From Candidatus Lloydbacteria bacterium RIFCSPHIGHO2_02_FULL_50_18 (lineage in GTDB: Bacteria; Patescibacteriota; Minisyncoccia; Phycocordibacterales; UBA6899), in NCBI GenBank assembly GCA_001821395.1, contig MHLM01000001.1, positions 144,021 to 208,020 on the forward strand: DNA of 64,000 nucleotides. The letters run 5' to 3'. Below the pieces are notes generated by a model. The model saw nothing but the letters and a program-made list of their open reading frames with translations, was not told the DNA's origin and did not search any database. This document shows, one piece after another, positions 5,363-58,152 of the stretch; within the stretch, counting starts at the first letter, position 1; each line of letters begins with the position of its first letter. The position numbers and the translations under genes are program-made.

Positions 5363-5400
5363 CTGGAGTGGCGGAATGGTAGACGCGTGAGGTGCTGGAT
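5363..5400 (+). pseudogene. 5' fragment of a tRNA-Leu. It matches 25 of 26 nt to the start of the tRNA-Leu(CAA) gene 215 bp downstream. There is no anticodon or T-arm half.
   Basis: gctggagtggcggaatggtagacgcg vs gccggagtggcggaatggtagacgcg. Confidence 0.5.
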
Positions 5401-5575
5401 TAGCGAAGCAGCGCTTCGCAAGCACCGCAAGGTCGGAGCCATGTCGAGGCTTTGTGAGACAGGCGAGACGGGGTCGCAAGAACTTATGAGCGAAGCGAAT
5501 TAGTTACTTGAGACCGACGTAGTCGTGCGCAGTGTGGATGTCGTGAGAATTGTTCAAAAAAATAAATAGTTCGTA
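5401..5575 (+). repeat. tRNA-linked element copy (core TTGTGAGACAGGCGAGACGGGGTCGCAAG, hairpin gcgaagcagcgcttcgc) between the tRNA fragment and tRNA-Leu(CAA).
   Basis: Motifs shared with 2262-2350, 9362-9532, 57225-57420 and 63270-63300. Confidence 0.5.
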
Positions 5576-5577
5576 TT

Positions 5578-18622: not shown

Positions 18623-19372
18623 CTATTCGGTCATGACTTTTCCCCACAATTCGCGATCAAGACTTTCTTTCCCGTGTGTCAAAATAAAATAATTAAGGTA
18701 CATGAACGGGATGTTGAGCAATCCCACGACCCACTTGAGTACGAGCTGCCCCCAGATCAGCGCCAACATAAGTTCCATACTCACACCAACATATGCAATA
18801 AAAACAAAAAGCACACTATCAATCGTTAGTGCGGGAATCGTCGAGATAACGTTGCGTAACCATAAATGTTTTCCATGGGTACGTTCTTTGAACCACGCAT
18901 AGATATACGCATCGATATTTTCCGAGATGAAAAAGGCGACCCATGATGCGATGGTCATCTGGGGAACAACGACAAAGAGGCTATCCCAATATTTTCCTTG
19001 TTCACTCCAAAACGGATGAGGTTCGAACTGTGCACCAAGCCAGAGAAAGAAGACCATCGCCATCTGAGCAATGAGCGCAATGAAGATCATGCGCTGCGTT
19101 GCCTTGCGTCCGAATCGTTCATTGACGATATCGGTAAGCAGAAATGTCACAGAAAATACCAATACTCCCGCTGAGGTGGTGAACAAACCCATGCTGCCGA
19201 GATCGAACGAAGCAACTTTGGTCGCGAGTATTTGTGACATCAGTACGAACGCAACGTACAGTCCGACCAAGAGGTCCGAACTTCCCAGCCTGCGTGCATA
19301 CAAGCTTCCGAGCAACGTAAAGCTCGTTACTCCTATGACCCAATACGCAAAAAGAGGAATCAGCATATGCAA
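18623..19372 (-). CDS. Polytopic membrane protein resembling YhhQ/DUF165 (queuosine-precursor transporter family).
   Basis: About 6 TM helices and family-like length. Confidence 0.4.
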   Translation of the reverse strand: MHMLIPLFAYWVIGVTSFTLLGSLYARRLGSSDLLVGLYVAFVLMSQILATKVASFDLGSMGLFTTSAGVLVFSVTFLLTDIVNERFGRKATQRMIFIALIAQMAMVFFLWLGAQFEPHPFWSEQGKYWDSLFVVVPQMTIASWVAFFISENIDAYIYAWFKERTHGKHLWLRNVISTIPALTIDSVLFVFIAYVGVSMELMLALIWGQLVLKWVVGLLNIPFMYLNYFILTHGKESLDRELWGKVMTE

Positions 19373-23810: not shown

Positions 23811-23882
23811 GGCGTAGTGGCGAAGTGGTAACGCATAGATCTGCAAAATCTACATGCACCGGTCCGATTCCGGTCTACGCCT
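23811..23882 (+). tRNA. tRNA-Cys(GCA).
   Basis: Hand-folded. Anticodon loop cuGCAaa, T-arm accgg-tccgatt-ccggt. Confidence 0.8.
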
Positions 23883-23955
23883 CCCTAAAACATTTTGTTG
23901 CAAAATGTTCGGGCGATCATTTTGCAACAAAATGATTTAGCCATGAACAAATGCT

Positions 23956-24700: not shown

Positions 24701-24880
24701 AAAAAAATCCGCGACAAGCGGATTTTTTTATGGTGCCCCCGAAGAAGTGCCCTGCGGCACTTCTGGCAGGATTCGAAGCCGTTCTCCCATATTTCTGAAT
24801 GATTCATATCATGAGGAAATGGGAAACGGGTACTGACGCAGTAGGCGTCGAAACTCCTGCCGTGAGATTTCAAAAGACTG
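24701..24880 (+). repeat. tRNA-linked element. Terminator aaaaaaatccgcgacaagcggattttttt. Mirror tggtgcccccg[aagaagtgccctgcggcacttctg]gcaggattcgaagcc. Core GTTCTCCCATATTTCTGAATGATTCATATCATGAGGAAATGGGAAACGGGTACTGACGCAGTAGGCG. Direct copy tcgaaactcctgccgtgag.
   Basis: Read directly from the sequence; the core is about 80% identical to the unit after tRNA-Val(GAC). Confidence 0.7.
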
Positions 24881-25070
24881 AGTATATTTCGCATGCCTGC
24901 GCATGCAGGTCTTCAAAATACGAAACCCAACATGCAGAGCTTGTCTTCGTGTCCCCAATGGCATCGGTGTGATTTCGCACTTGCGAACAAGTCTATGAGA
25001 ACCCAACTGATGTCGGTTTATTCTTCCACTTCCCTTTTATCCAAATTCCAGTACTATAGCCCTACACCCT

Positions 25071-25152: not shown

Positions 25153-25400
25153 CAAAGAAAACCGCGTAAGCGGTTTTTGTGTGCCCAGAGCGACTGAATA
25201 CTACAAAGAGTACTTCATTTTTCTAAAGCAGAATACTGCTAAGAAAAATTGGTCGCACCACAGAGAGTACTTCATTTTTCTAGAGCAGAATACTGCTAAG
25301 AAAAATTGGTCGCTGCTTCAGTCGCGCGAGAGGACTTGAAGCCGTTCTCCTGTATTTTTGAAGATTTCTTAATCTGACAGGTAGCCCAAATCTTGCACGC
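25153..25400 (+). repeat. tRNA-linked element. Terminator aaaaccgcgtaagcggtttt. Mirror tgtgcccagag[~130-nt insert]gagaggacttgaagcc. The insert is a hairpin (gcgactgaa ... ttcagtcgc) whose loop holds 2 x 52-bp tandem repeats (AGAGTACTTCATTTTTCTARAGCAGAATACTGCTAAGAAAAATTGGTCGC). Core spacer GTTCTCCTGTATTTTTGAAGATTTCTTAATCTGACAGG.
   Basis: Read directly from the sequence. Confidence 0.65.
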
Positions 25401-25438
25401 CAGTCTCTACGTAATCATCATGGATAGATTCATGATGA

Positions 25439-27166
25439 TCATTCATTTCCCATCAATTCGTTTATTTTAGCCGAAGTGGTTTTACCAACATATCCGGTCC
25501 CCCTAACAAGACCCCAGGGCGCTAAAACATCTTCGGTATATTTTTCTTGGAATTTTATAACTGCTTTATAAGTCAAGAGGCCGAAATAATCAGTTTCCTT
25601 ACCCGGAGAGCCAACACCCGAATCAGCCAATCGAGTATCGGGGTCGGAATTGAGGAAAATTTGCAAGCGTTTTATGTCTGCATTTGTTTGTCGGTATTGT
25701 CGGTATTGAGTAAATGGGTTAGTAAATGGCAAAATATTTATTCGCAAATTTTCCGTTACAGTAGTACCCGATCTTAGAACGATTATGCTTGAAGCAGTAT
25801 CTGATGATCTGCCGTAGGCAGTGTAAAATTTAACATAAACGGTATATTGTCCATCCGGACAGATTAGATTTTTAAGTGTACCGCCAAATTTTGAGCATAA
25901 GTCCCATAGCTTGAAGGCGACATAATCTTCTCGGCTGGCATCAGTGAAATCTCCAGTCATTGAAATCGCCAATTGCTTGATGTCCATTCCCGCATTAAAA
26001 CCAAGTATGACATTTCTATTTGACGTTGTGCTTGATCCGGAATTTACAAAAACCTTAAATCCACCTGTCGGCGTTATCGGCAAATTACTCCAACCTGCTG
26101 GCATACCACCTCCCCCACTTGAAGTTACAGCAGGAGTTACTAAGACGGCGTCCCAAATCAAAGTAAAATTATGAGAGTTGGAATTTCCGACGTTATCTGA
26201 GGCAGTAAAACTGATTACATAAGTTCCGTTAGTATCGACTGAGATAGTTGTGCTCGACGCGGTACCGTCTCCAAACGTTACCGCACCAGGTCCTGAAACT
26301 TTTGCCCACTGATAAGTTGAAGCGTTCATATCGCTCCCGGAATCTGAAGCTGCAGCGACTTGAGTAAATGTAGCTCCTTTATTTTGATCATCTCCAGCAC
26401 TAATGGTGGGATTTTGTTTATCAATTTTTATGATATTTGACGATTCTGTGTTCTCAATATTCCCTAAATTATCTACTGAGTAGTACCTTATATATTGCTG
26501 ACAACTAGAACCTGAGTCACACGACAAACTAACACTTGTTCCTTCAGTGGTTGGCACGCAGCTATTATTAGTGTCAACGCAATAATATGTATGCGCTATT
26601 CCGCTTCCGCTATTATCAGACGGGTTCAAATTAATAGTAAGATCTGAACTATGCCAATTATCATCAGCATTATCGGTTGTAGTTGGAGACGTATTTCCCA
26701 CTACAATCGATTCATTAAATGAAACGCTCCAATCGTAAAGGGGCAGTCCGGTACTGCCTGAAGATGGCGATACGCTCGTATCTGTATCTCGAATATTACC
26801 ACCTACGGCAGTAGCATCGCCGGCTTGTGCGCACCAAGATGCAACAACATAGCAACTCCAGGCGTATCTCAAATGTTGATCTGTGCCAGTCGGCGTATCA
26901 CTTAGAGTAATTTTTACTTGACTGTTATTATTTATAAGTTCTACTGAATCTATTGAAACACTATTGCCACCAGCCTGTGTAAATTCAAACCCATAATCAG
27001 GACGCTCCGCAACGTTGGCAGTATCAATAGCTAATGTTCCATAAGGGATATTATAATTGGCGATTATTACGTTACTCGATCTCAAAATCGATGATGGCAT
27101 GAGGGGATTCCAAGTCTGTCCCTCAAACAATACTTTATCCATAACTTTTGCAAACATCTCTCCCAT
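25439..27166 (-). CDS. C-terminal part of a giant surface protein: Ig-like/beta-rich region plus a C-terminal peptidoglycan-binding domain (YFGLLTYKAVIKFQ ... GYVGKTTSAKINEL). Probably continuous with the upstream ORF via an A8 homopolymer frameshift.
   Basis: PGBD motif. The 85-nt overlap with the upstream ORF contains A8 at 27166-27173; one extra A would fuse the two frames. Confidence 0.6.
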   Translation of the reverse strand: MGEMFAKVMDKVLFEGQTWNPLMPSSILRSSNVIIANYNIPYGTLAIDTANVAERPDYGFEFTQAGGNSVSIDSVELINNNSQVKITLSDTPTGTDQHLRYAWSCYVVASWCAQAGDATAVGGNIRDTDTSVSPSSGSTGLPLYDWSVSFNESIVVGNTSPTTTDNADDNWHSSDLTINLNPSDNSGSGIAHTYYCVDTNNSCVPTTEGTSVSLSCDSGSSCQQYIRYYSVDNLGNIENTESSNIIKIDKQNPTISAGDDQNKGATFTQVAAASDSGSDMNASTYQWAKVSGPGAVTFGDGTASSTTISVDTNGTYVISFTASDNVGNSNSHNFTLIWDAVLVTPAVTSSGGGGMPAGWSNLPITPTGGFKVFVNSGSSTTSNRNVILGFNAGMDIKQLAISMTGDFTDASREDYVAFKLWDLCSKFGGTLKNLICPDGQYTVYVKFYTAYGRSSDTASSIIVLRSGTTVTENLRINILPFTNPFTQYRQYRQTNADIKRLQIFLNSDPDTRLADSGVGSPGKETDYFGLLTYKAVIKFQEKYTEDVLAPWGLVRGTGYVGKTTSAKINELMGNE

Positions 27167-29169
27167 TTTTTTTCTTGGGTATTCACGTCCATATGGAGCT
27201 TGTCCGACCGATAATGATATTGATACTTTGGCTGGACCAAAATAATTTTTCCGGGATTATCTATATGCGCGTTTAATTGTGCTTCAGCTATTTCCCCCGT
27301 TGGCGCGGAATTCATTTGATTTATAAATAATGGGATAGTGTCGTTACGGCTAGTCAGAGTATTAAGATCGGTTTCATAATCCAACTGCCATTCTTCAAGA
27401 TAACTTTTATAATTTGCTCCGGCACCACCCACATAATCACTTTCTCCGTGAATTGAAGTAACTGCGATGGGTCGATACAGCTCGCCTAGCGTACTCTCAA
27501 CGTAAGTTTTAGTTACACTTGCCTGTGTCATACCCTTGTTATACCAAGATGTCCCCTTTTTTAAACCACTGTAGTTAGTTCCACCATGTGCATGGAGGCC
27601 AACGACAATTGGACTGAGAAGATCTTCATACGCATGAAGGCTATTGGCCATTCCTGATGAGATTGTTTCCACATTACCGCCCTCTCCTTGCCCAGACTCA
27701 ATTAATGGTATGAGCGGAGCAGCTGTTCCTTCAACTCCGGGGGTAAGCATAAGATTATTATAAGGCTGCGTAACGCTTATAGGCGGTGAAGCATAATAAA
27801 CTACGGCCAGACTTTGCCCCGTTGACAATATCTGATAGTAGGTTGTTTGCTCATTTACCGCGAAGGAAACAGTCCCGGAATTATTTGTAAGAGCAGGAGT
27901 TGCTGACACGCTTATTATATGAGGAGACCCACTCGTACTTGTAGGTGTATAGGTGAATGTTTTTGCATCTGACGAACCGGACCACGACAACGAAGTTGGC
28001 GCAAACGTTCCGGCACCAGTTGATGACGATGTAATCGTGCCGGTATATTCGCCATCAGGCGTCACAATAAAATTACCGGATGCTGTAGCCATCGTGCCAG
28101 ACGACGGGCCGGCAAAAGTAAATGATGTAGCGGGTGGCGCAAGGGTGACGACTGAAAATTCAGAACTGTCTGCGGTTGCAGGGACGCCATCGGTAACCCT
28201 GAGCTTGTAATAATAAATCGTAGCGGGAGATAGTCCGGTATCTGATAATGTGAGCGATGTTTGTCCGCTTAAAATATTCCCAACACCCGGCGTAAAACCG
28301 CTGCTTATGCTACGGTACCACTGATAAATATAGGGTGCTATTCCTCCTGTTGCTTCCGAAGATGAAAGATCGATACTTGAATCTGTTTTCTCCATTAAAC
28401 TAATTGAGCCGGCGCTAAAAGTAGAAAACGGATATTCAAGCCCTGTGCCCGAATTGTATAAACTCGTGATCTCATCTGGAGTTAGTATTTTTTTCCAAAA
28501 ACCAACAGAATCAATGCGCCCGTCCAAATACATTGTAGCACCAGAAGCCTGAAATCTCCCGATTGTAAATGCTGCGCTAGTATTTGCCGGCTCGGAACCG
28601 GCGACGCTTGTATTGGTATACGTATTATTAACAGTTATGGTATTAGTATGAGTGGTAGCATTGTGGCTACATGTGAGAAAATACCATTGGCCAATCTGGA
28701 CTCCCCCCGTTGGAGTCACATATGCATCTACCGATGGAAAAGTAGAACAGCGAAACGTGTCGGAACTAACACCGTAATACAAAGCATATTCTCCGGTGCT
28801 GCCATATTTTCCAACAAACGTCATATTTGTTGATTTGGTATCAAGATAGACCCATGCAGAAATAGTAAAATCTATACCGCCTATACTCAAACTGGGATTA
28901 TCAACGATGCTTAAATATTCTGAGTTAGCCATAGTTAACTGCGCAGAATTTCCAAGTTTGCCAACTCCTTGAGTCACCGTATTGTTGTCGGTCAGATTAT
29001 TTGAACTAACACTATCTGCTCGCGTACCACTTACCTCATCTAATTTCCAATAAGAAATAAGTGATGTGGATAAATCCGTTGCAAAAACATGAGAGAAAAA
29101 TTGTGTGTACAACGACACCGAAATTAAAAGCAGGGCAAATATTTTAAAATTTTTTCGAAAGGTTTTCAT
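27082..29169 (-). CDS. N-terminal part of the giant surface protein: signal peptide, LamG/concanavalin-like domain (DFTISAWVYLD), Ig/FN3-like Thr/Ser-rich repeats.
   Basis: Signal peptide and LamG-like motif. Confidence 0.6.
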   Translation of the reverse strand: MKTFRKNFKIFALLLISVSLYTQFFSHVFATDLSTSLISYWKLDEVSGTRADSVSSNNLTDNNTVTQGVGKLGNSAQLTMANSEYLSIVDNPSLSIGGIDFTISAWVYLDTKSTNMTFVGKYGSTGEYALYYGVSSDTFRCSTFPSVDAYVTPTGGVQIGQWYFLTCSHNATTHTNTITVNNTYTNTSVAGSEPANTSAAFTIGRFQASGATMYLDGRIDSVGFWKKILTPDEITSLYNSGTGLEYPFSTFSAGSISLMEKTDSSIDLSSSEATGGIAPYIYQWYRSISSGFTPGVGNILSGQTSLTLSDTGLSPATIYYYKLRVTDGVPATADSSEFSVVTLAPPATSFTFAGPSSGTMATASGNFIVTPDGEYTGTITSSSTGAGTFAPTSLSWSGSSDAKTFTYTPTSTSGSPHIISVSATPALTNNSGTVSFAVNEQTTYYQILSTGQSLAVVYYASPPISVTQPYNNLMLTPGVEGTAAPLIPLIESGQGEGGNVETISSGMANSLHAYEDLLSPIVVGLHAHGGTNYSGLKKGTSWYNKGMTQASVTKTYVESTLGELYRPIAVTSIHGESDYVGGAGANYKSYLEEWQLDYETDLNTLTSRNDTIPLFINQMNSAPTGEIAEAQLNAHIDNPGKIILVQPKYQYHYRSDKLHMDVNTQEKKWERCLQKLWIKYCLRDRLGIPSCHHRF

Positions 29170-29503
29170 AATTCGTTACTCTTTCGCCATTGAAGATATA
29201 TCATAAAATGATGGTTTTTAAAAAAATATTTTGTAAACACTTTCCAAAAAATCACCACCAACACAACCAACGATGAACCACCACCACCCGGCTTACGCCG
29301 CAAAGTATTGTAGGGCGAATAAAAGCTAAGGCCGTGGTGAATTCACCAAGCCCGAAAAAAATTAACCCCTTGCTCATTTTAGCCCAAAATATTTCGTATT
29401 TTGTTTCTAATCTTGTATCTCTTGTTCGTATTGTACCATATTTTTCCAAGTCAAAGACAAAATCGCCAATATTGAATTAGCCGCTTACCTCCTCTCAAAA
29501 CCC

Positions 29504-54319: not shown

Positions 54320-55960
54320 TTATTTTCCGGCTTTTTGAGATGCTTTCGGCTCCTTGTCCGACATCTTCAATACCTTTTTGACACGTTCGAGTCGAAGGTA
54401 TTCCACGTGGTCCATCGCTTTGACTGCGTCCCGTGCCTTTTCGCCAAAGAGATACAAGGCTGGGTCGCGTTCAATTAACGGTGCCCGTGTCGCGCTCGGG
54501 TCGCTTGATGCTCCCCCTGAGACAATAGCCCCATCGAGGTCACACTCATGGATATCCTTTTTCTGATCGATAACGCCTTCTATGTCGTAATCAATATCAG
54601 GATCGATGCCCTTGCATTGAACAGCGACGTAACTTGTCGGAGAACCGAGGAGATATTCAGCCTCATTCAAACGAACATAGCTGCCATCGCCAAATGGTCC
54701 GATGTTCTGCATCGAGCCTTTTCGCCATGTCCCCTTGCCGATGATCACGCACCTGCCAAGCTTCTTCAGGTCCCCAGCAAAGATCTCCGCGGCTGATGCT
54801 GAACTACCGTTAATGAGCACTGCGCATGCGAGACCATTCGTGATATCGCCACGTTGAGGTTCCGGAATTCTCTCACCGGCTACCGTACCGTATGCATGAA
54901 CACCATTGTTATCGCGGATCGATACCAATGGATCAGTGCTGTCTGCTATCGCGTCAACTGCTTCGTAGGCCTCGGTCAGCAACCCCCCGGGATTGTTTCG
55001 GACATCAAAAATGATCCCCTTCACACCCGAATGTCGAGCGAGCATTTGCTTCACTGACTCGACCATTTTTGAACGTAGCGCAGTCCCGAATTGGACGAGT
55101 TCCACATAGGCGTACTTGGCATTTGGATCGTTCGGCATCCTGAGGATCCGTGTCTTCACCATCGGGACCTTGATTGAGGCACGCACGACAGTGATAGTGA
55201 GGAGTTGATCTTTGTCTCCTCTCAAAATCTCAAGGATGACGGGTGTGTTCGGCTTACCGGCGATCTGTCCGATCGCTGCTTCCATATCAGGAAGAGAAGT
55301 GGTTAACACACGTTTATTACCGTTCACAATGGCGACGATTCGATCACCATCTTTTACCCCAGCCTTTTCTGCGGGTGATCCTTCCATGACATGAACGACA
55401 CCAATTGCCCGCTCATCGGTAAATCCAAAATGTACACCGATCCCCTGCATATCCCCTGACATGCTTTTCATGAATGCAGCAGATTCTTCTTCGTTCATGT
55501 AACCTGAATGCGGGTCGCGTGACGAAAGAATACTGTGATACACGCCGTTCATGCAGGTCTTGAAGTCCACTATCTGCGGCTCGATCACGCACGAGAGCTG
55601 AATGACATCAAACAATTTAAACACCAGAGCCGAAAGGTGGATCTGTTGCGCGGTCATGTTTTCACCGAATTGTTGGGGATGCCGTGCTGCAAACGTTTGC
55701 TCAAGCTCCCGAAGGACCTCTTCCTGGCGATCAGAAGACATATTCCGATCCGATAGGATCTTACGAACGACCTTGTCCACGCACACATCATCATCGGTGA
55801 TAGCGGGGTAAATATTGCAAGCCATGACCGTCAGTGAGACAGCCTTTTGGGACAATACCGCATCGGGCGAATCTTCGGGCGTTCTAGCCCATGCGGTAGT
55901 GGCCATGAACACGTATGACATCACGACCAATGCCACGATACTCCGGAGAGTTGTTTTCAT
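54320..55960 (-). CDS. C-terminal processing (tail-specific) protease, S41 family, with a PDZ domain (FDVRNNPGG).
   Basis: S41 motif and PDZ. Confidence 0.8.
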   Translation of the reverse strand: MKTTLRSIVALVVMSYVFMATTAWARTPEDSPDAVLSQKAVSLTVMACNIYPAITDDDVCVDKVVRKILSDRNMSSDRQEEVLRELEQTFAARHPQQFGENMTAQQIHLSALVFKLFDVIQLSCVIEPQIVDFKTCMNGVYHSILSSRDPHSGYMNEEESAAFMKSMSGDMQGIGVHFGFTDERAIGVVHVMEGSPAEKAGVKDGDRIVAIVNGNKRVLTTSLPDMEAAIGQIAGKPNTPVILEILRGDKDQLLTITVVRASIKVPMVKTRILRMPNDPNAKYAYVELVQFGTALRSKMVESVKQMLARHSGVKGIIFDVRNNPGGLLTEAYEAVDAIADSTDPLVSIRDNNGVHAYGTVAGERIPEPQRGDITNGLACAVLINGSSASAAEIFAGDLKKLGRCVIIGKGTWRKGSMQNIGPFGDGSYVRLNEAEYLLGSPTSYVAVQCKGIDPDIDYDIEGVIDQKKDIHECDLDGAIVSGGASSDPSATRAPLIERDPALYLFGEKARDAVKAMDHVEYLRLERVKKVLKMSDKEPKASQKAGK

Positions 55961-56224
55961 GGTAATCTCCTTTCAAAAAACTTCACTTGTTCCTTATTTA
56001 CCCTATACCAGTTTCAAAATATTGCAAGAGAATTGTCAATAATCAAAAAATAGACGCAAAATTATCGCTTTTGGTGTCTGTCGGTCATTGATTTTTTCTG
56101 CTAAGTTTCCGAAACATTACCTCAAATACAACCGCGCAAACGGAGTCTTGCGGAGACTATGAAAATAGAGATTGTCCTACAACGCACGATATGTTAGTAT
56201 CTCCTTATTCAGATAAACGATATT

Positions 56225-56297
56225 GGGCGGTTAGCTCAGTTGGTAGAGCGCCACTTTGACGTAGTGGATGTCAGAGGTTCGACTCCTCTATCGCCCA
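56225..56297 (+). tRNA. tRNA-Val(GAC).
   Basis: Hand-folded. Loop uuGACgu, T-arm agagg-ttcgact-cctct. Confidence 0.8.
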
Positions 56298-56600
56298 CAA
56301 GAAAAAGCCCCATTGGGGGCTTTTGATTTGTGGGCGAAGAAAGCCAACTGCTTGGCTTTCGCTGGAGGAGTCGAAAAGCTTGGTGATGTTTTTGAGAAAT
56401 TCATATTTTGAAAAAACCACCAAAGTATACTGTCCCCGTAGGGGAAGACTCCTCGATTCGTGACCGACTATTCTGTTGTCTGCATGACTTTCGTTAGAGG
56501 AGTCGAAGACCTTCTCCCATATTTTTGAGGATTTCCTAATCTAAAAAATGTGAAAGGGGTACTGACGCAGTAGGCGTTGAATCTCCTCTATCACCCACGC
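56298..56600 (+). repeat. tRNA-linked elements, 2 units. Terminator aaaaagccccattgggggcttttt. Mirror tgtgggcga[agaaagccaactgcttggctttcgc]tggaggagtcgaa. Unit 1 core GTATACTGTCCCCGTAGGGGAAGACTCCTCGATTCGTGACC. Unit 2 is about 80% identical to the tRNA-Lys unit and ends with a direct copy ttgaatctcctctatcacccacg.
   Basis: Read directly from the sequence. Confidence 0.7.
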
Positions 56601-56691
56601 AGCGACAAAGAAATTATCTGTACCAAGACCTCTTTACATACTAATCCTGAATGCTATGCTTTCACAGGATTGCAACAATGGGTGGACAAAT

Positions 56692-56943
56692 ATGAATCGC
56701 ACATGGAAAGCTTTTTTAGCGAGCATTTTTTTGGGGATTCTCATTGGGATCGGAATATACATGCTCACGGGCAACATGCAGGCAACATTATTTCTCGGGG
56801 TTGGCATCTGGGGCGTCGCGTATTTCATTTGCGTAGGAATCACCTCAATGGCCGCTTCGCTCTCAAAGATCAGGAGTCTTATCGAAAAGCAATGCTCGAA
56901 ATATCAGTCATGTCAGTGCAAAAATGATGCAAAACCGGATTAA
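56692..56943 (+). CDS. Small hypothetical membrane protein (2 TM, C-terminal Cys cluster).
   Basis: ORF. Confidence 0.3.
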   Translation: MNRTWKAFLASIFLGILIGIGIYMLTGNMQATLFLGVGIWGVAYFICVGITSMAASLSKIRSLIEKQCSKYQSCQCKNDAKPD

Positions 56944-57010
56944 CTCCGGTTTTTTATTGGGGCAGACGCTCATTGAACCTCCACTCTTCCTATGCTAGTA
57001 TTTCATCATC

Positions 57011-57084
57011 GCATCCTTAGCTCAGTTGGTTAGAGCATTGCATTCACATTGCAGGGGTCGGAGGTTCGAATCCTCCAGGGTGCA
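57011..57084 (+). tRNA. tRNA-Val(CAC). CCA is encoded.
   Basis: Hand-folded. Loop uuCACau, T-arm ggagg-ttcgaat-cctcc. Confidence 0.75.
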
Positions 57085-57087
57085 CCA

Positions 57088-57425
57088 ACCTAGGACGCAA
57101 CTGCTTGCGTCCGTGGAGGATTTGAAAGGATTTTCATTATCGAGTCCGCGAGGTTGAAAATCACCTGCGGCGGTAGCCGAGAATCCTCCAGGGTGCACAA
57201 ATCAGACACAAAACCTTCCCTGCGGAAGGTTTTGTGTCTGATTTGTGAGACAGAGTCATGTTTTTTCAGCAGAAAAAACAGACGAGTCGGGGTCGCGGAA
57301 ATTTTCGAGTGGCGACGAGAAATTATCTGTGACCAAGGATGGCTTTTCGTCATCGAAATACGAAACCCGTACCACTCCCGTAGGGAGAGAAATTCCTCCA
57401 GGGGTACACCATCAGCAAGAAATTC
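57088..57425 (+). repeat. tRNA-linked elements. Hairpin ggacgcaactgcttgcgtcc. Partial mirror gtggaggatttgaa. Direct copy 1 cgagaatcctccagggtgcaca. 20-bp perfect hairpin aatcagacacaaaaccttcc/ggaaggttttgtgtctgatt. Core TTGTGAGACAGAG ... GAGTCGGGGTCGCGGAAATTTTCGAGTGGCGACGAGAAATTATCTGTGACC ... CCCGTACCACTCCCGTAGGGAGAG. Direct copy 2 gaaattcctccaggggtacacc.
   Basis: Read directly from the sequence. Confidence 0.65.
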
Positions 57426-57432
57426 CTCCTTC

Positions 57433-58152
57433 CTACCTCCACTTCACCCCCTCAAACCAATCTCCCGGGCAGGTGGTCTTTGGATTCGCCATGCGATGAG
57501 GAATGATCCGATCGATTGCAACATTCGGGTAGTGTTCTTGAATGATCCTTTTTGCACCCTCTATCATAGTGTCGGGTGGTGGAGTATGTTCAAAATCCCC
57601 ATCAAGACAAATACCGATACTACGGCAATTGATACCCCAATTCCCCGCCTGCCAGCCTATCTCATCATCATTCAGCAACCGCTCCGCTGTGCCGTCCGTG
57701 CGCACGAGCCAATGATATGCATAGAATACCATCCGCCTCTTTCCTTCTTCTACTCGAAAATGATTTGACCAGACCGGAGTTCCTTCTATCTTTTTTTCCG
57801 TTGACGGGGACAGATAGGACTTCGCGTAAAGCCTGAGAAGATGCATGGCATCAAGTCGCTGCCAGGTGATCCCGCTTTCACCTTTCGTGTGGTGGATGAC
57901 AATCGTATCGAGGGGCTTCCGCTCGGCATCCCAATCCTTTCCTTCTCCCCCCAGAATAACCATTCCATCACTCAAAAGAGCCTCAAAAAAGCCGTATACC
58001 GCGTCTCGCGCCGCCTTACGGGTGCTCCGGTCGGAACCCTCGTATTTGGTCAAAATTGCTTCAAATTCGGGGTATATGACACGATACCAATCATGCCGTT
58101 TTACGGCTGCATTCTTCCACTTGTCTTGGTCAAAAAATGGACTTTCAGGCAT
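57433..58152 (-). CDS. N-acetylmuramoyl-L-alanine amidase (Amidase_2/PGRP fold; IVIHHT, AYHWLV, CPG).
   Basis: Amidase_2 motifs. Confidence 0.6.
   Translation of the reverse strand: MPESPFFDQDKWKNAAVKRHDWYRVIYPEFEAILTKYEGSDRSTRKAARDAVYGFFEALLSDGMVILGGEGKDWDAERKPLDTIVIHHTKGESGITWQRLDAMHLLRLYAKSYLSPSTEKKIEGTPVWSNHFRVEEGKRRMVFYAYHWLVRTDGTAERLLNDDEIGWQAGNWGINCRSIGICLDGDFEHTPPPDTMIEGAKRIIQEHYPNVAIDRIIPHRMANPKTTCPGDWFEGVKWR

Follow-up and report, generated by a model that had tools for sequence, protein, structure and literature searches.

Direct repeats of tRNA 3′ ends are a hallmark of tRNA-integrating islands. Among systems that choose their target with a guide, IS200/IS605 elements reportedly use one of 4 nt, a figure that goes back to Barabas et al. 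in 2008, and class C group II introns are said, after the work of Robart et al. in 2007, to insert just after intrinsic terminator hairpins, with the hairpin and a short base-pairing as the target. IStrons, in turn, are group I introns fused to an IS200/IS605-type element. For IS200/IS605 and REP/RAYT, published work on their mechanism describes strand-specific hairpins, insertion 3′ of a short sequence and read-out of this sequence by a guide (PMC5027513, PMC3597680, PMC3333891). Moreover, group I introns are described as abundant in the tRNA genes of Patescibacteria (PMC13011429; PMC4227781).

Here we analyse the DNA behind two tRNA-Val genes within a stretch of 64 kb from a Candidatus Lloydbacteria genome (hereafter, the window). 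An earlier sequence-only reading had proposed that both genes carry multi-unit elements, and these were found where it had placed them or close by. On the tRNA strand, a unit comprises, in this order, a hairpin (in many cases with CTGC as its loop), a guide that can pair with the insertion site and a conserved two-hairpin core. We consider it probable that both arrays result from the serial, nested, guide-specified insertion of non-autonomous elements that fold as single strands and work like IS200/IS605 ends. A search of the published literature returned no description of this family; the one thing it brought up, group I introns in the anticodon loop of tRNAs of Patescibacteria, is distinct.

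As in IS200/IS605, PATEs and REP/BIME-RAYT, the hairpins are strand-specific (here subterminal and in one folding strand), insertion occurs directly 3′ of a short specific sequence, and this tetranucleotide is read by a guide located just 5′ of a hairpin foot, with target and guide covarying. The copies are also non-autonomous, protein-less and cargo-free, like PATEs and REPs. In contrast to IS200/IS605, which do not duplicate the target gene end, a direct repeat of the gene 3′ end of 19 to ~90 nt is found here, and the guide, in place of 4 nt, extends over 6-20 nt and is matched to each individual tRNA. Neither IS200/IS605 nor REPs show three different hairpins in a three-way junction with tandem G·A motifs, or a core conserved across phyla, and no gene for TnpA (Y1 HUH) or RAYT occurs in the window or next to 90 loci with type B cores (see below).

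With group I introns and IStrons the elements share an internal guide that can pair on either side of the insertion point (the P1/P10 logic) and an insertion into essential genes that is made harmless. Unlike group I introns, however, they have no P3-P9 core and no match to RF00028 (gathering threshold or E ≤ 10), the junction is formed by an invariant C-G and a terminal C versus the U·G and omega-G of the introns, and it is a duplicated 3′ end, not splicing, that preserves the gene; their sites are the T-loop or the acceptor end, not the anticodon loop occupied by the group I introns of Patescibacteria. As with tRNA-integrating islands, prophages and CIMEs, the element would supply a replacement tRNA 3′ end and leave the displaced one as a direct repeat, and repeated integration would build tandem arrays, as it does for islands and CIMEs. 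In contrast to islands, the units measure 100-200 nt instead of kilobases, no integrase was found for them, they have a structured core with a target-complementary guide, and several distinct insertion points are used within one tRNA. Class C group II introns are comparable in their insertion after terminator hairpins and in the use of a hairpin plus a short pairing to find the target, but they have intron domains and a reverse transcriptase, both lacking here.

Organization of the two arrays

Two types of core, A and B, were distinguished. Behind tRNA-Val(GAC) the array is built as follows:

56225-56298, + strand: tRNA-Val(GAC) (ARAGORN, Rfam, repeat analysis)
56300-56337, + strand: terminator-like hairpin behind tRNA-Val(GAC) (inverted repeat I2, 56291-56311 / 56317-56337)
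56339-56360, + strand: 9-bp hairpin with CTGC loop, gaaagccaaCTGCttggctttc, the module 5′ of the guide in type A units
56362-56375, + strand: guide a′ of type A unit 1, ctggaggagtcGAA (inverted repeat I5, 88% over 16 nt against 56278-56293)
56376-56454, + strand: type A core of unit 1 (three-way junction) and truncated tail copy (fold z = -4.5; type A alignment and consensus fold)
56455-56493, + strand: what is left of the 3′ end of an earlier type B core, the tRNA-tail tetranucleotide gact and a decayed CTGC hairpin
56494-56598, + strand: type A unit 2, with guide ttagaggagtcGAA, core and full-length tail copy tgaatctcctctatcacccac (inverted repeat I3, 94% over 16 nt)
56600-56624, + strand: second type B 3′-end remnant, cagcgacaaagaaattatctgtacc (exact 13-nt match AGAAATTATCTGT to the intact core, 57318-57330)

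The insertion point in this tRNA is the T-loop GTTC (G53-C56), and repeat copy y1, the tRNA 3′ part from C56, spans 56280-56299 in the repeat analysis. A short segment b′ (tgtgggcga, 56329-56337), complementary to the 3′ strand of the tRNA acceptor, lengthens the stem of the terminator-like hairpin, whereas the guide of unit 1 pairs with the T-loop and the 3′ strand of the T-stem. The two units announced by the sequence-only reading are thus two type A units, each of ~130 nt and together covering 56329-56598; it had put the second one at about 80% identity to the tRNA-Lys unit, and we measured 78%. Unit 1 ends in a truncated tail copy (agactcctc, 56446-56454) and unit 2 in a full-length one (56578-56598), which at 56581-56598 has 3 mismatches over 18 nt, when 0.02 chance matches are expected in the window. 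The first type B remnant (gattCGTGACC, 56455-56465) was recognized from the orthologous locus of relative L128, where an intact type B core ending in CTCGTGACC and followed by gactcc precedes a CTGC hairpin and a type A unit, the latter sitting exactly at the 3′ GACC junction of the core. The second trapped fragment of an older type B (56600-56624) reads ...gaaattatctgtacc.

Behind tRNA-Val(CAC), a short type A unit is followed by a long hairpin and an entire type B core, and finally by what remains of an older type A unit:

57011-57087, + strand: tRNA-Val(CAC) with encoded CCA (ARAGORN, Rfam)
57093-57126, + strand: CTGC-loop hairpin (57093-57112) and guide a′ gtggaggatttGAA (57113-57126) (inverted repeat I6, 88% over 16 nt)
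57127-57198, + strand: short type A core and tail copy gagaatcctccagggtgcac (57179-57198) (fold z = -3.8; exact 18-nt repeat)
57196-57247, + strand: perfect 24-bp hairpin with CTGC loop, the type B 5′ hairpin (H1) (inverted repeat I1, 100%)
57248-57334, + strand: complete type B core (covariance model R1, 91.4 bits, E = 8e-22)
57335-57411, + strand: older type A variant, of which the 3′ two-thirds are present (P2 hairpin, CGTACC, P3 ctcccGTAGggag), and the oldest tail copy

Guide gtggaggatttGAA pairs with the T-loop and T-stem of this tRNA, and in the predicted fold the short type A core is closed by the pairing of a′ with the tail. Its tail copy ends in GCAC, the target of the next element, and the outermost 3 bp of H1 (arms 57196-57219 / 57224-57247) join CAC of this flank, the end of the tail copy, to GTG of the element guide. 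Two copies of the tRNA 3′ end had been claimed here. The first, placed at 57166-57190, is real, with GAATCCTCCAGGGTGCAC repeated exactly at 57181-57198 (0.01 chance matches expected in the window), although its start had been set ~13 nt too early; the second, placed at 57389-57410, is a diverged copy, gaaattcctccaggggtacacca, at 57389-57411, with two small indels (87% over 15 nt; 19 of 22 tRNA positions in a gapped alignment). The type B core described between both copies is there and complete, as judged with a covariance model made from 45 type B copies of other genomes; it runs AGACAGAG, hairpin A (AGCA loop), CGAGTCGGGGTCGCG, hairpin B and CTGTGACC. A hairpin with a perfect 20-bp stem had also been located inside. 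Its stem is indeed perfect, but has 24 bp and lies between the first tail copy and the core, not within the latter. Far from being incidental, it corresponds to the 5′ hairpin of the type B element, with a homologue after tRNA-Leu(TAG) in relative L133 that carries a compensatory A>G / T>C change. The older type A variant resembles the unit of L023, ...tatatttcgtcttcaaaatacgaaacctgtaccgtccctgtagggga. When the tail copies are ordered by divergence, as had been suggested, those farther from the tRNA are the more diverged, in favour of serial insertion.

Anatomy and fold of the elements

The guide is composed of a′, of 6-13 nt, followed by G-N-N-A or G-N-N-R, and is found directly 5′ of each core. 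It pairs with the sequence 3′ of the core, which turns the whole unit into a three-way junction, and every unit finishes with a direct repeat of the tRNA 3′ end. CTGC is the commonest tetraloop among the hairpins of the window, and the nine hairpins with this loop all lie on the + strand (no GCAG loop), eight of them inside elements.

Among 45 distinct type B copies, the proposed fold pairs 95.3% of the cells, against 73.9% in shuffles and 37-49% in slid controls, with compensatory changes at 28 of the 38 pairs, covariation in the H1, P2 and P3 hairpins and two conserved G-U pairs, which mark the tRNA-sense strand as the folding one. For type A, 13 of the 16 pairs predicted in the consensus fold are compensatory. 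Folded as single sequences, five of eight sense-strand units reach z values of -3.8 to -6.3, and the other three of -1.3 to -2.5. Junction nucleotides, both G-U pairs, the tandem G·A motifs and the loops are strongly conserved in type B; motifs AGACGGAG, CGAGUCGGGGUCG and UGUGACC and the loop sequences are kept across whole phylum-level lineages, a conservation imposed in part by the search pattern itself. Such a conserved core is more typical of a catalytic or host-factor-binding RNA than of transposon ends. If a type B circle were formed, with its 3′ end joined to H1, it would read ...TGTGACC followed directly by AAATCAGACAC...

Target rule and duplication of the gene end

Type B elements insert immediately 3′ of G-N-N-C, which constitutes the last four bases 5′ of the insertion point in 53 of 55 copies. 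The two middle bases covary with those of the guide G-N-N-A at the foot of P2 (GAAA with GTTC, GTGA with GCAC, GCGA with GCGC and GTAA with GTAC), and a′-GNN reads as the reverse complement of the bases on both sides of the insertion point. Targets of type B are the T-loop G53-T54-T55-C56, GCAC at the acceptor end, and GCAC or GTAC in topA, ~75-100 nt before the end of the gene. Each element creates in addition a new G-N-N-C site with its own 3′ end, GACC. The sequence-only reading had deduced serial insertion at one same attachment site; the serial character holds, but at least three kinds of site are in use, after the GTTC of the T-loop, after the GCAC of the acceptor end and after the GACC at the 3′ end of an earlier element. 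In this line, own-tail repeats follow 85 of 158 tRNAs with a GTTC T-loop versus 2 of 11 with other T-loops (Fisher p = 0.03), and an inverted 9-mer of the own tail lies downstream of 64 of 158 tRNAs in type B loci, frequencies biased upwards because the loci were chosen for having type B. The tRNA-Cys of the window has a non-GTTC T-loop and is element-free.

The target gene stays complete, and the sequence from the insertion point to the end of the gene or transcript is present twice. Of these two copies, for tRNAs as well as for topA, the proximal one is intact and the distal one decays. For tRNAs, C56 is the first repeated base in 29 of 60 cases, and in the clean ones the repeat ends at C74, the CCA being retained by the distal copy. 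In the youngest case, topA in L059, the copies are near-identical, with 2 mismatches in the 91 nt that reach to the terminator, and the guide comes directly after.

Turnover among relatives and distribution

Relatives with ClpB at least 90% identical carry differing unit types at the same tRNAs. At tRNA-Val(GAC), L127, L128 and L130 have type B, and the window type A plus A with B remnants; tRNA-Trp has type A in L133, and type B with a type A remnant in the window; tRNA-Lys has type B in L135/L136 and type A in the window. All this evidence of mobility comes from comparisons between species. No empty versus filled allele at the strain level appeared among contigs with an identical amidase, which all belong to one strain and show 100% identity wherever they cover the array; a metagenome scan with the neighbouring S41 peptidase retrieved no relatives, and the small ORF that lies between both tRNAs had no exact match on record. 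The type B pattern occurs at >117 loci, mostly of Patescibacteria of many classes.

Searches for known families and for a partner enzyme

Rfam detected only tRNAs, in the whole window at the gathering threshold and in two sub-regions at E ≤ 10, where matches below threshold were hairpin noise. Pfam models applied to 30 ORFs of the 64-kb window revealed neither a transposase nor an integrase nor a reverse transcriptase, and clustering of 685 ORFs adjoining 90 type B loci yielded housekeeping genes only, with no recurrent enzyme gene. Among 2.9 million viral contigs there was no true type B match, the lone hit being a chance one to high-GC sequence lacking the other motifs of the element.

Several known RNAs were considered and discarded. 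The hammerhead would need another order of junction lengths, and its CUGANGA and GAAA motifs are missing. In a group I P7-P3-P8-P9 remnant the P3 strand would lack a partner and the junction bases would be wrong; here, hairpin A stacks straight onto the GAC/GUC helix through tandem G·A pairs. Group II domain V, the ZTP riboswitch and other aptamers gave no match, and a kissing interaction between the CTGC and AGCA loops showed no covariation. We also rejected a TnpB/IscB omega-RNA guided by the tail copy, since it would equally target the intact tRNA upstream. In template/variable repeats of a DGR the copies should differ only at adenines, which is not the case here, and the complement of the tRNA runs past A58 and is interrupted by a hairpin, unlike a retroviral-type primer-binding site. 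A classical DDE-derived MITE should have terminal inverted repeats of its own and leave a short target duplication of fixed length. Here the duplication ranges from 4 to ~90 nt, and the sole inverted repeat (a′/tail) comes from the target, with a different version at each tRNA.

How the elements may move

Under the reading that we favour, the DNA behind both tRNA-Val genes would be a graveyard of small non-coding mobile elements, inserted after and into one another. The element would move as a folded single strand handled by a putative trans-acting enzyme, with cleavage and joining after a tetranucleotide picked by base-pairing to the guide at the hairpin foot, following the logic of IS200/IS605 ends and REP/RAYT. 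This enzyme is hypothetical, since none is present in the window or recurs near type B loci. The inserted DNA would bring the proximal copy of the gene end and, therefore, the displaced original 3′ end would remain as a direct repeat. The long, target-specific part of the guide probably derives from the snap-back (template-switch) extension of the terminator palindrome. Repeated hits at regenerated sites, together with deletions between repeats, would then have given rise to the Val arrays, for which we infer at least four events at Val(GAC) and at least three at Val(CAC). The arrays have been shaped by deletions and inversions as well as by insertions.

If this is right, genomes of ~1 Mb thought to be streamlined are riddled with undescribed guide-bearing mini-elements. 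The spare gene end that each carries would offer a harmless entry to single-copy essential genes such as tRNAs and topA, and an insertion would be hard to lose because the host relies on the element-borne end. With targets chosen by base-pairing (through G-N-N-C and the extended guide), the system may be programmable, which would be of interest to the field of RNA- or DNA-guided recombinases and transposons, and the nested arrays could serve as insertion markers for the phylogeny of the Candidate Phyla Radiation (CPR).

Alternative explanations

A rather unlikely alternative, though the best of them, places the process at the RNA level. The three-way junction would be a ribozyme or a processed RNA that, guided by a′-GNN, cleaves and joins target transcripts after G-N-N-C, much as group I introns and IStrons do through their internal guide sequence (P1/P10); the resulting RNA chimera would enter the genome by reverse transcription and recombination, and the duplication would be the 3′-terminal piece of the target RNA. 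It would fit that the guide spans the junction, as the reverse complement of the 5′ exon end and the 3′ exon start, that the duplication stops at an RNA end (C74 in tRNAs, the terminator U-run in topA of L059 and in L013) and that the guide begins straight after the duplicated segment. The conservation across phyla of junction nucleotides, G-U pairs, G·A motifs and loops, the lack of a protein partner among the adjoining ORFs and the plentiful group I introns of Patescibacteria (PMC13011429) point the same way. However, no ribozyme or intron model of Rfam matches even at E ≤ 10, the junction bases are not those of group I introns, and in several units (Lys and Leu(TAA) of the window; L090, L116, L119) the tRNA and the core are separated by a hairpin of terminator type with its U-run, which would limit transcription of the core. 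Nor is there a reverse transcriptase in the window or next to type B loci, and group II introns are reported as absent from Patescibacteria in the same source (PMC13011429).

It is unlikely, in our opinion, that the three-way junction is itself the catalyst, as RNA or folded single-stranded DNA and perhaps with the help of housekeeping enzymes only. It would cut and join after G-N-N-C through its own guide, and acquire a new target by snap-back copying of the 3′ end of the terminated transcript or strand behind which it landed. Should this be true, we would face a protein-gene-free, self-programming mobile element at the ends of essential genes across the CPR and, if the core is catalytic, a new class of ribozymes.

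We regard as quite unlikely that the units are host-functional 3′ trailers, inherited vertically as portions of the tRNA genes and possibly serving for termination, for processing or for regulation by pairing with the tRNA 3′ end, whose arrays come from local tandem duplication and whose similarity between loci comes from gene conversion. Their near-universal association with the tRNAs of the window (10 of 11), the strong structural conservation of the cores, guides that are always specific to the local tRNA, terminator hairpins integral to the units and a perfect 199-nt tandem duplication in L080, compatible with unequal crossing-over, would all be expected from trailers. They would not explain, however, why the same core lies behind the protein gene topA together with decaying copies of its coding 3′ end, or why orthologous tRNAs of close relatives differ in type and number of cores. 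Moreover, cores are nested in one another and in each other's hairpins, many copies are truncated or decayed, and about half of the CPR tRNAs examined are devoid of any unit.

It is very improbable that we are dealing with classical integrase scars, the remains (attL/attR copies of the tRNA tail and conserved element ends) of phages or genomic islands that entered the tRNA 3′ end time after time and were later lost by deletion. The direct repeats themselves, a longer tRNA-Ala duplication with an ORF in between (L025) and a tRNA-Tyr allele of L133 that was wholly replaced, with the old 3′ end remaining next to a LAGLIDADG gene, are reminiscent of such events. Nothing in the arrays points to an att-type integrase system, however: integrases are missing from the window and from the ORFs adjoining type B loci, the type B core is absent from the viral contigs, and the units are just 100-200 nt long with a covarying fold. 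A simple att scar is insufficient because every unit has an inverted, target-complementary guide, and neither this guide nor its covariation with G-N-N-C has a counterpart in att sites.

Finally, chance similarity can be practically dismissed, and so can repeat mis-assembly in a metagenome-assembled genome, which the sequence-only reading had named as what could undo its proposal: short-read contigs of this population do often break exactly at these elements, but positions 55901-57500 (1.6 kb) are 100% identical in the short-read contigs of three independent samples (ENA ERZ27254752, JGI 3300025323 and JGI 3300002502), the repeat matches are far above chance and the family was found again in >100 other genomes. 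The elements would themselves account for contig breaks, and probably for tRNA inversions, in CPR metagenome assemblies; the tRNA genes of L127 and L133 have the opposite orientation to those of the window.

Layout of the tRNA-Val arrays

The arrays behind the two tRNA-Val genes genuinely belong to a family of guide-bearing mini-elements extending across the Candidate Phyla Radiation (CPR), of which they are an informative example. The earlier description of them, made without database searches, holds apart from small corrections. The units are small, protein-less and hairpin-folded, with cores of two kinds (types A and B), and are accompanied by copies of the tRNA 3' part (tail copies).

Features of the tRNA-Val arrays
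56225-56298: tRNA-Val(GAC); on its 3' side, a terminator hairpin and then two ~130-nt units
57011-57087: tRNA-Val(CAC); a CTGC-loop hairpin comes first on its 3' side
57181-57198: second in the Val(CAC) array, exact 18-nt tail copy closing a short unit (0.01 expected by chance)
57196-57247: third, perfect 24-bp hairpin with a CTGC loop (H1, the 5' hairpin of the type B element)
57248-57334: fourth, complete type B core
5' of the third tail copy: fifth, 3' part of an older unit
57389-57411: last, third tail copy, more diverged

Mis-assembly, which the sequence-only reading had named as what would refute its description, is unlikely, since the 1.6 kb spanning the arrays is 100% identical among contigs of three independent samples. 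The two units described behind tRNA-Val(GAC) are present, the second being 78% identical to the unit behind tRNA-Lys (about 80% had been estimated) and closed by a tail copy of tRNA-Val(GAC) (56581-56598) that differs from it at 3 of 18 nt (chance expectation 0.02). Behind tRNA-Val(CAC), the tail copies reported around a type B core were recovered as well, with the first of them now placed at 57181-57198, and the hairpin reported as 20 bp is indeed a perfect stem, of 24 bp and located 5' of the core. A homologue of this hairpin occurs in a locus from another genome, L133, after tRNA-Leu(TAG), 3' of GCAC and 5' of a type B core, and differs from it by a compensatory A>G / T>C change; H1 is therefore part of the element.

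Unit anatomy and fold

Among the 11 tRNA genes of the window, all except tRNA-Cys are followed by units (10/11), and the regions downstream of all 11 revealed the anatomy of the unit.

Order of parts, read on the tRNA strand
1: 3' part of the tRNA (y1, the proximal copy)
2: terminator-type hairpin, often with a stem lengthened by b', which is complementary to the acceptor 3' strand
3: CTGC-loop hairpin of 9 bp (type A units)
4: a' (the guide), complementary to the T-loop and the T-stem 3' strand
5: core
6: y2 (the distal copy), direct tRNA copy from mid-T-loop onwards

Each tRNA has its own specific versions of a', b' and y2. All nine CTGC-loop hairpins of the window lie on the + strand, eight of them within units, and every annotated ORF was assigned by Pfam to a housekeeping or cell-surface gene or gave no match. 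In the type A core the junctions read GAA-R and GGUACUG and the P3 hairpin has a loop of GUAA or GUAG, and the type B core comprises AGACGGAG, hairpin A (AGCA loop), CGAGUCGGGGUCGCG, hairpin B (GACG loop) and UGUGACC. Pairing of a' with y2 gives helix P1 in both core types, and y2 directly follows the last core hairpin, without a linker.

The three-way-junction fold predicted for the units (helices P1, P2 and P3) is real, as judged by modelling of multiple copies. For type B, 45 distinct copies from many genomes had 95.3% of cells paired, versus 73.9% when shuffled and 37-49% with the partners slid, and compensatory changes were found in 28 of the 38 pairs. Two G-U pairs adjoining the 3' junction are conserved, one in 45/45 copies and the other as 36 G-U and 9 A-U, which identifies the tRNA-sense strand as the folding strand. 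The same topology was predicted for type A from 19 copies (compensatory pairs 13/16), and eight sense-strand units folded singly lay below their shuffled controls, five of them by 3.8-6.3 SD and the other three by 1.3-2.5 SD.

Distribution and database identity

A search for the pattern CGAGTCGGGGTCG-N28-50-TGTGACC in one genome per species gave more than 117 matching stretches for type B. Among the matches listed, the true ones came from Saccharibacteria, Paceibacterota and Lloyd-, Kaiser-, Morani-, Nomura-, Taylor-, Zambryskii-, Yonath- and Adlerbacteria, and type A is spread as widely. Actinobacterial and archaeal matches, with high GC, were rejected as chance occurrences inside genes, and the sole match in 2.9 million viral contigs was also due to chance, in a high-GC sequence where the other element motifs are absent. 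At the type B loci, an inverted 9-mer of the own tail was found downstream of 64/158 tRNAs, and a direct one downstream of 66/158. The family has no match in Rfam or in the literature searched: Rfam gave none to the units at either the gathering threshold or E <= 10, and the literature searches returned only the group I introns of Patescibacteria tRNAs, which are located in anticodon loops (PMC13011429), and no element in a T-loop or 3' of a tRNA.

Target rule

The strand-specific folded units carry a guide complementary to the target and follow a G-N-N-C rule with covariation. Together, a' and the three bases that separate it from the type B core are reverse-complementary to the sequence on both sides of the insertion point, and the tetranucleotide before the cut has the form G-N-N-C in 53/55 type B copies (GTTC in 32, GCAC in 15, GCGC in 2, and GTGC, GAGC, GTAC and GCCC in 1 each). 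The matching guide tetranucleotides are GAAA (30), GTGA (14) and others in fewer copies, with a conserved guide A opposite the conserved target G. GTTC corresponds to G53-T54-T55-C56 of the T-loop, and GCAC to the acceptor end. Moreover, since the type B 3' end is GACC, every insertion recreates a site of G-N-N-C form. Own-tail repeats accompany 85/158 tRNAs with a GTTC T-loop versus 2/11 with a deviant one (p = 0.03), in loci picked for type B content, which inflates the absolute frequencies. The T-loop of tRNA-Cys (window 23811-23955 with its trailer), counted among the deviant tRNAs and the sole window tRNA without a unit, has GTCC in place of GTTC, as does that of L133.

Gene-end duplication

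Gene ends are duplicated around the units, which are also found nested and turned over. The repeat starts at C56 in 29/60 tRNA cases, and clean repeats end at C74, with the CCA kept by the distal copy and absent from the proximal one. A type B core also lies behind topA (DNA topoisomerase I), in the window and in 12/90 loci, where the last 75-100 nt of coding sequence are doubled, the upstream copy being intact and the downstream copy decaying.

2224-2440, + strand: full type B topA element with CTGC hairpin, GTG guide and core (108.7 bits), directly 3' of the stop at 2223

Downstream of this element, the window has the last ~75 nt of topA again, in a decaying copy, and then the original terminator. 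The youngest topA case (L059) keeps two near-identical copies of 91 nt, with 2 mismatches, that extend to the terminator. Its guide, directly 3' of the duplicated segment, is complementary first to the last 8 nt of that segment and then to its first 8 nt together with 2 nt of flank upstream. The topA arrangement in CPR loci is at times a 2-unit array (L109).

Turnover, nesting and order of insertion

Between-species comparisons show a rapid turnover of units; no strain-level empty site was found. At the tRNA-Val(GAC) locus, beside an S41 peptidase gene, L127, L128 and L130 have a type B unit, L127 with a peptidase 89% identical to that of the window and with tRNA-Val(GAC) (1-300) in the opposite orientation. 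In L128 the type B core is joined precisely at its CGTGACC end by a type A unit (6-nt tail, CTGC hairpin, guide). All that the window retains of that core, between its two type A units, is gattCGTGACC/gact (56455-56469, the slash marking the junction), and a second type B remnant lies at 56600-56624. The tRNA-Leu(CAA) array contains type B remnants of the same kind, its cgtgaccaag motifs. Among relatives with a ClpB at least 90% identical to that of the window, tRNA-Trp has type A in L133 versus type B and a type A remnant in the window, and tRNA-Lys has type B in L135 and L136 versus type A in the window. The tRNA-Lys of L133 (2278-2353) lies opposite to that of the window, an inversion that, like that of tRNA-Val(GAC) in L127, presumably came from recombination between inverted element copies. 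The tRNA-Tyr of L133 (13930-15240) is an allele other than that of the window, with an exact copy of the window-type 3' end (gaatcctgccctacgcacca) left downstream among units; a LAGLIDADG homing-endonuclease gene adjoins its 5' end.

The proposal of serial insertion was right in substance, with its single attachment site and the role of the hairpin to be revised. When ordered by divergence, as had been suggested, the distal tail copies are the more diverged, a gradient that fits arrivals at the gene-proximal site or at the 3' junction of the previous element. Read from one genome, which does not fix the sequence of the middle events, the Val(CAC) array fits an old type A variant (57335-57411), then type B with H1, and then the short type A unit beside the tRNA, and Val(GAC) underwent at least two type B and at least two type A events, plus deletions.

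A third mini-element of ~57 nt, CGACYAATTTTTCYTAGC.GTA.TC.GCT.TAGAAAAATGAAGTACTC.CTGTGGTG, lies in or beside CTGC hairpin loops of type A units, which suggests a further nesting layer.

Window 25199-25312, opposite strand: two tandem copies of the ~57-nt mini-element
L128 ~2856-2912 and L133 ~18984-19040: the same mini-element

In the window, a ~4-kb block (~25380-29500) with two large surface proteins (PKD, LamG) cuts the tRNA-Leu(TAG) type A unit short within its P2 loop and is absent from the syntenic relative L133. Behind the tRNA-Lys unit, a type A variant remnant (24860-24960; gagtatatttcg...tcttcaaaatacgaaaccc) is broken up by a 6-bp CTGC-loop mini-hairpin (24891-24906), its L023 homologue being unbroken there. 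An intergenic graveyard in L133 (18800-19480) contains a tRNA-Trp 3' remnant, a type A unit whose P2 is split by an 82-nt miniature type B core, and further type B and type A fragments. In a saccharibacterial locus (L080, 6500-6990, - strand), tRNA-Val(GAC) is followed by two tandem type B units of 199 nt, 100% identical, and both distal tail copies have a common 2-nt insertion absent from the tRNA, which makes the first unit, and not the tRNA, the source of the second.

Mechanism and origin of the guide

We infer that the most likely process would be a single-strand cut-and-join after the tetranucleotide that the guide, at the P2 foot, would select. Folding would bring the base of H1 or P1, at the element 5' end, to the junction together with the base of P3, at its 3' end, which suits a cut-and-join reaction and a circular intermediate. 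The same logic is described for IS200/IS605 'peel and paste' and for REP/RAYT (PMC5027513, PMC3597680, PMC3333891). Membership in the IS200/IS605 family is opposed by a long target duplication, a long tailored guide, a core conserved phylum-wide and the failure to see a TnpA. The guide of IS200/IS605 elements comprises 4 nt. Neither a TnpA nor any recurrent adjoining protein gene was seen by Pfam on the window ORFs or among the ORFs flanking type B loci.

The main rival to cut-and-join is an RNA-level process. In its favour, the guide resembles a group I internal guide sequence, the end of the duplicated segment coincides with that of the RNA, and the conservation is of ribozyme kind. Against it, the junction bases are wrong for group I, known ribozyme and intron models all fail to fit, a terminator-type hairpin precedes the core in several units, and no RT was seen near units. 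That the units are purely host-functional trailers or integrase scars is less likely, as both fit poorly with the topA copies, nesting and turnover.

The tailored guide probably arises through snap-back or template-switch extension of the terminator palindrome, as suggested by extended and often perfect palindromes that have real terminator hairpins at their centre (for example window tRNA-Lys and Val(CAC), L013 and L090). Upstream of tRNA-Leu(CAA) (window 5363-5577, + strand; also L106, 3700-3930), 25 nt of the tRNA 5' end are present a second time, followed by a hairpin, by a type B core that has diverged (46.5 bits) and, 3' of that core, by an inverted copy of tRNA positions ~24-33, a mirror of the usual layout in which the duplicated part is the 5' end of the gene.
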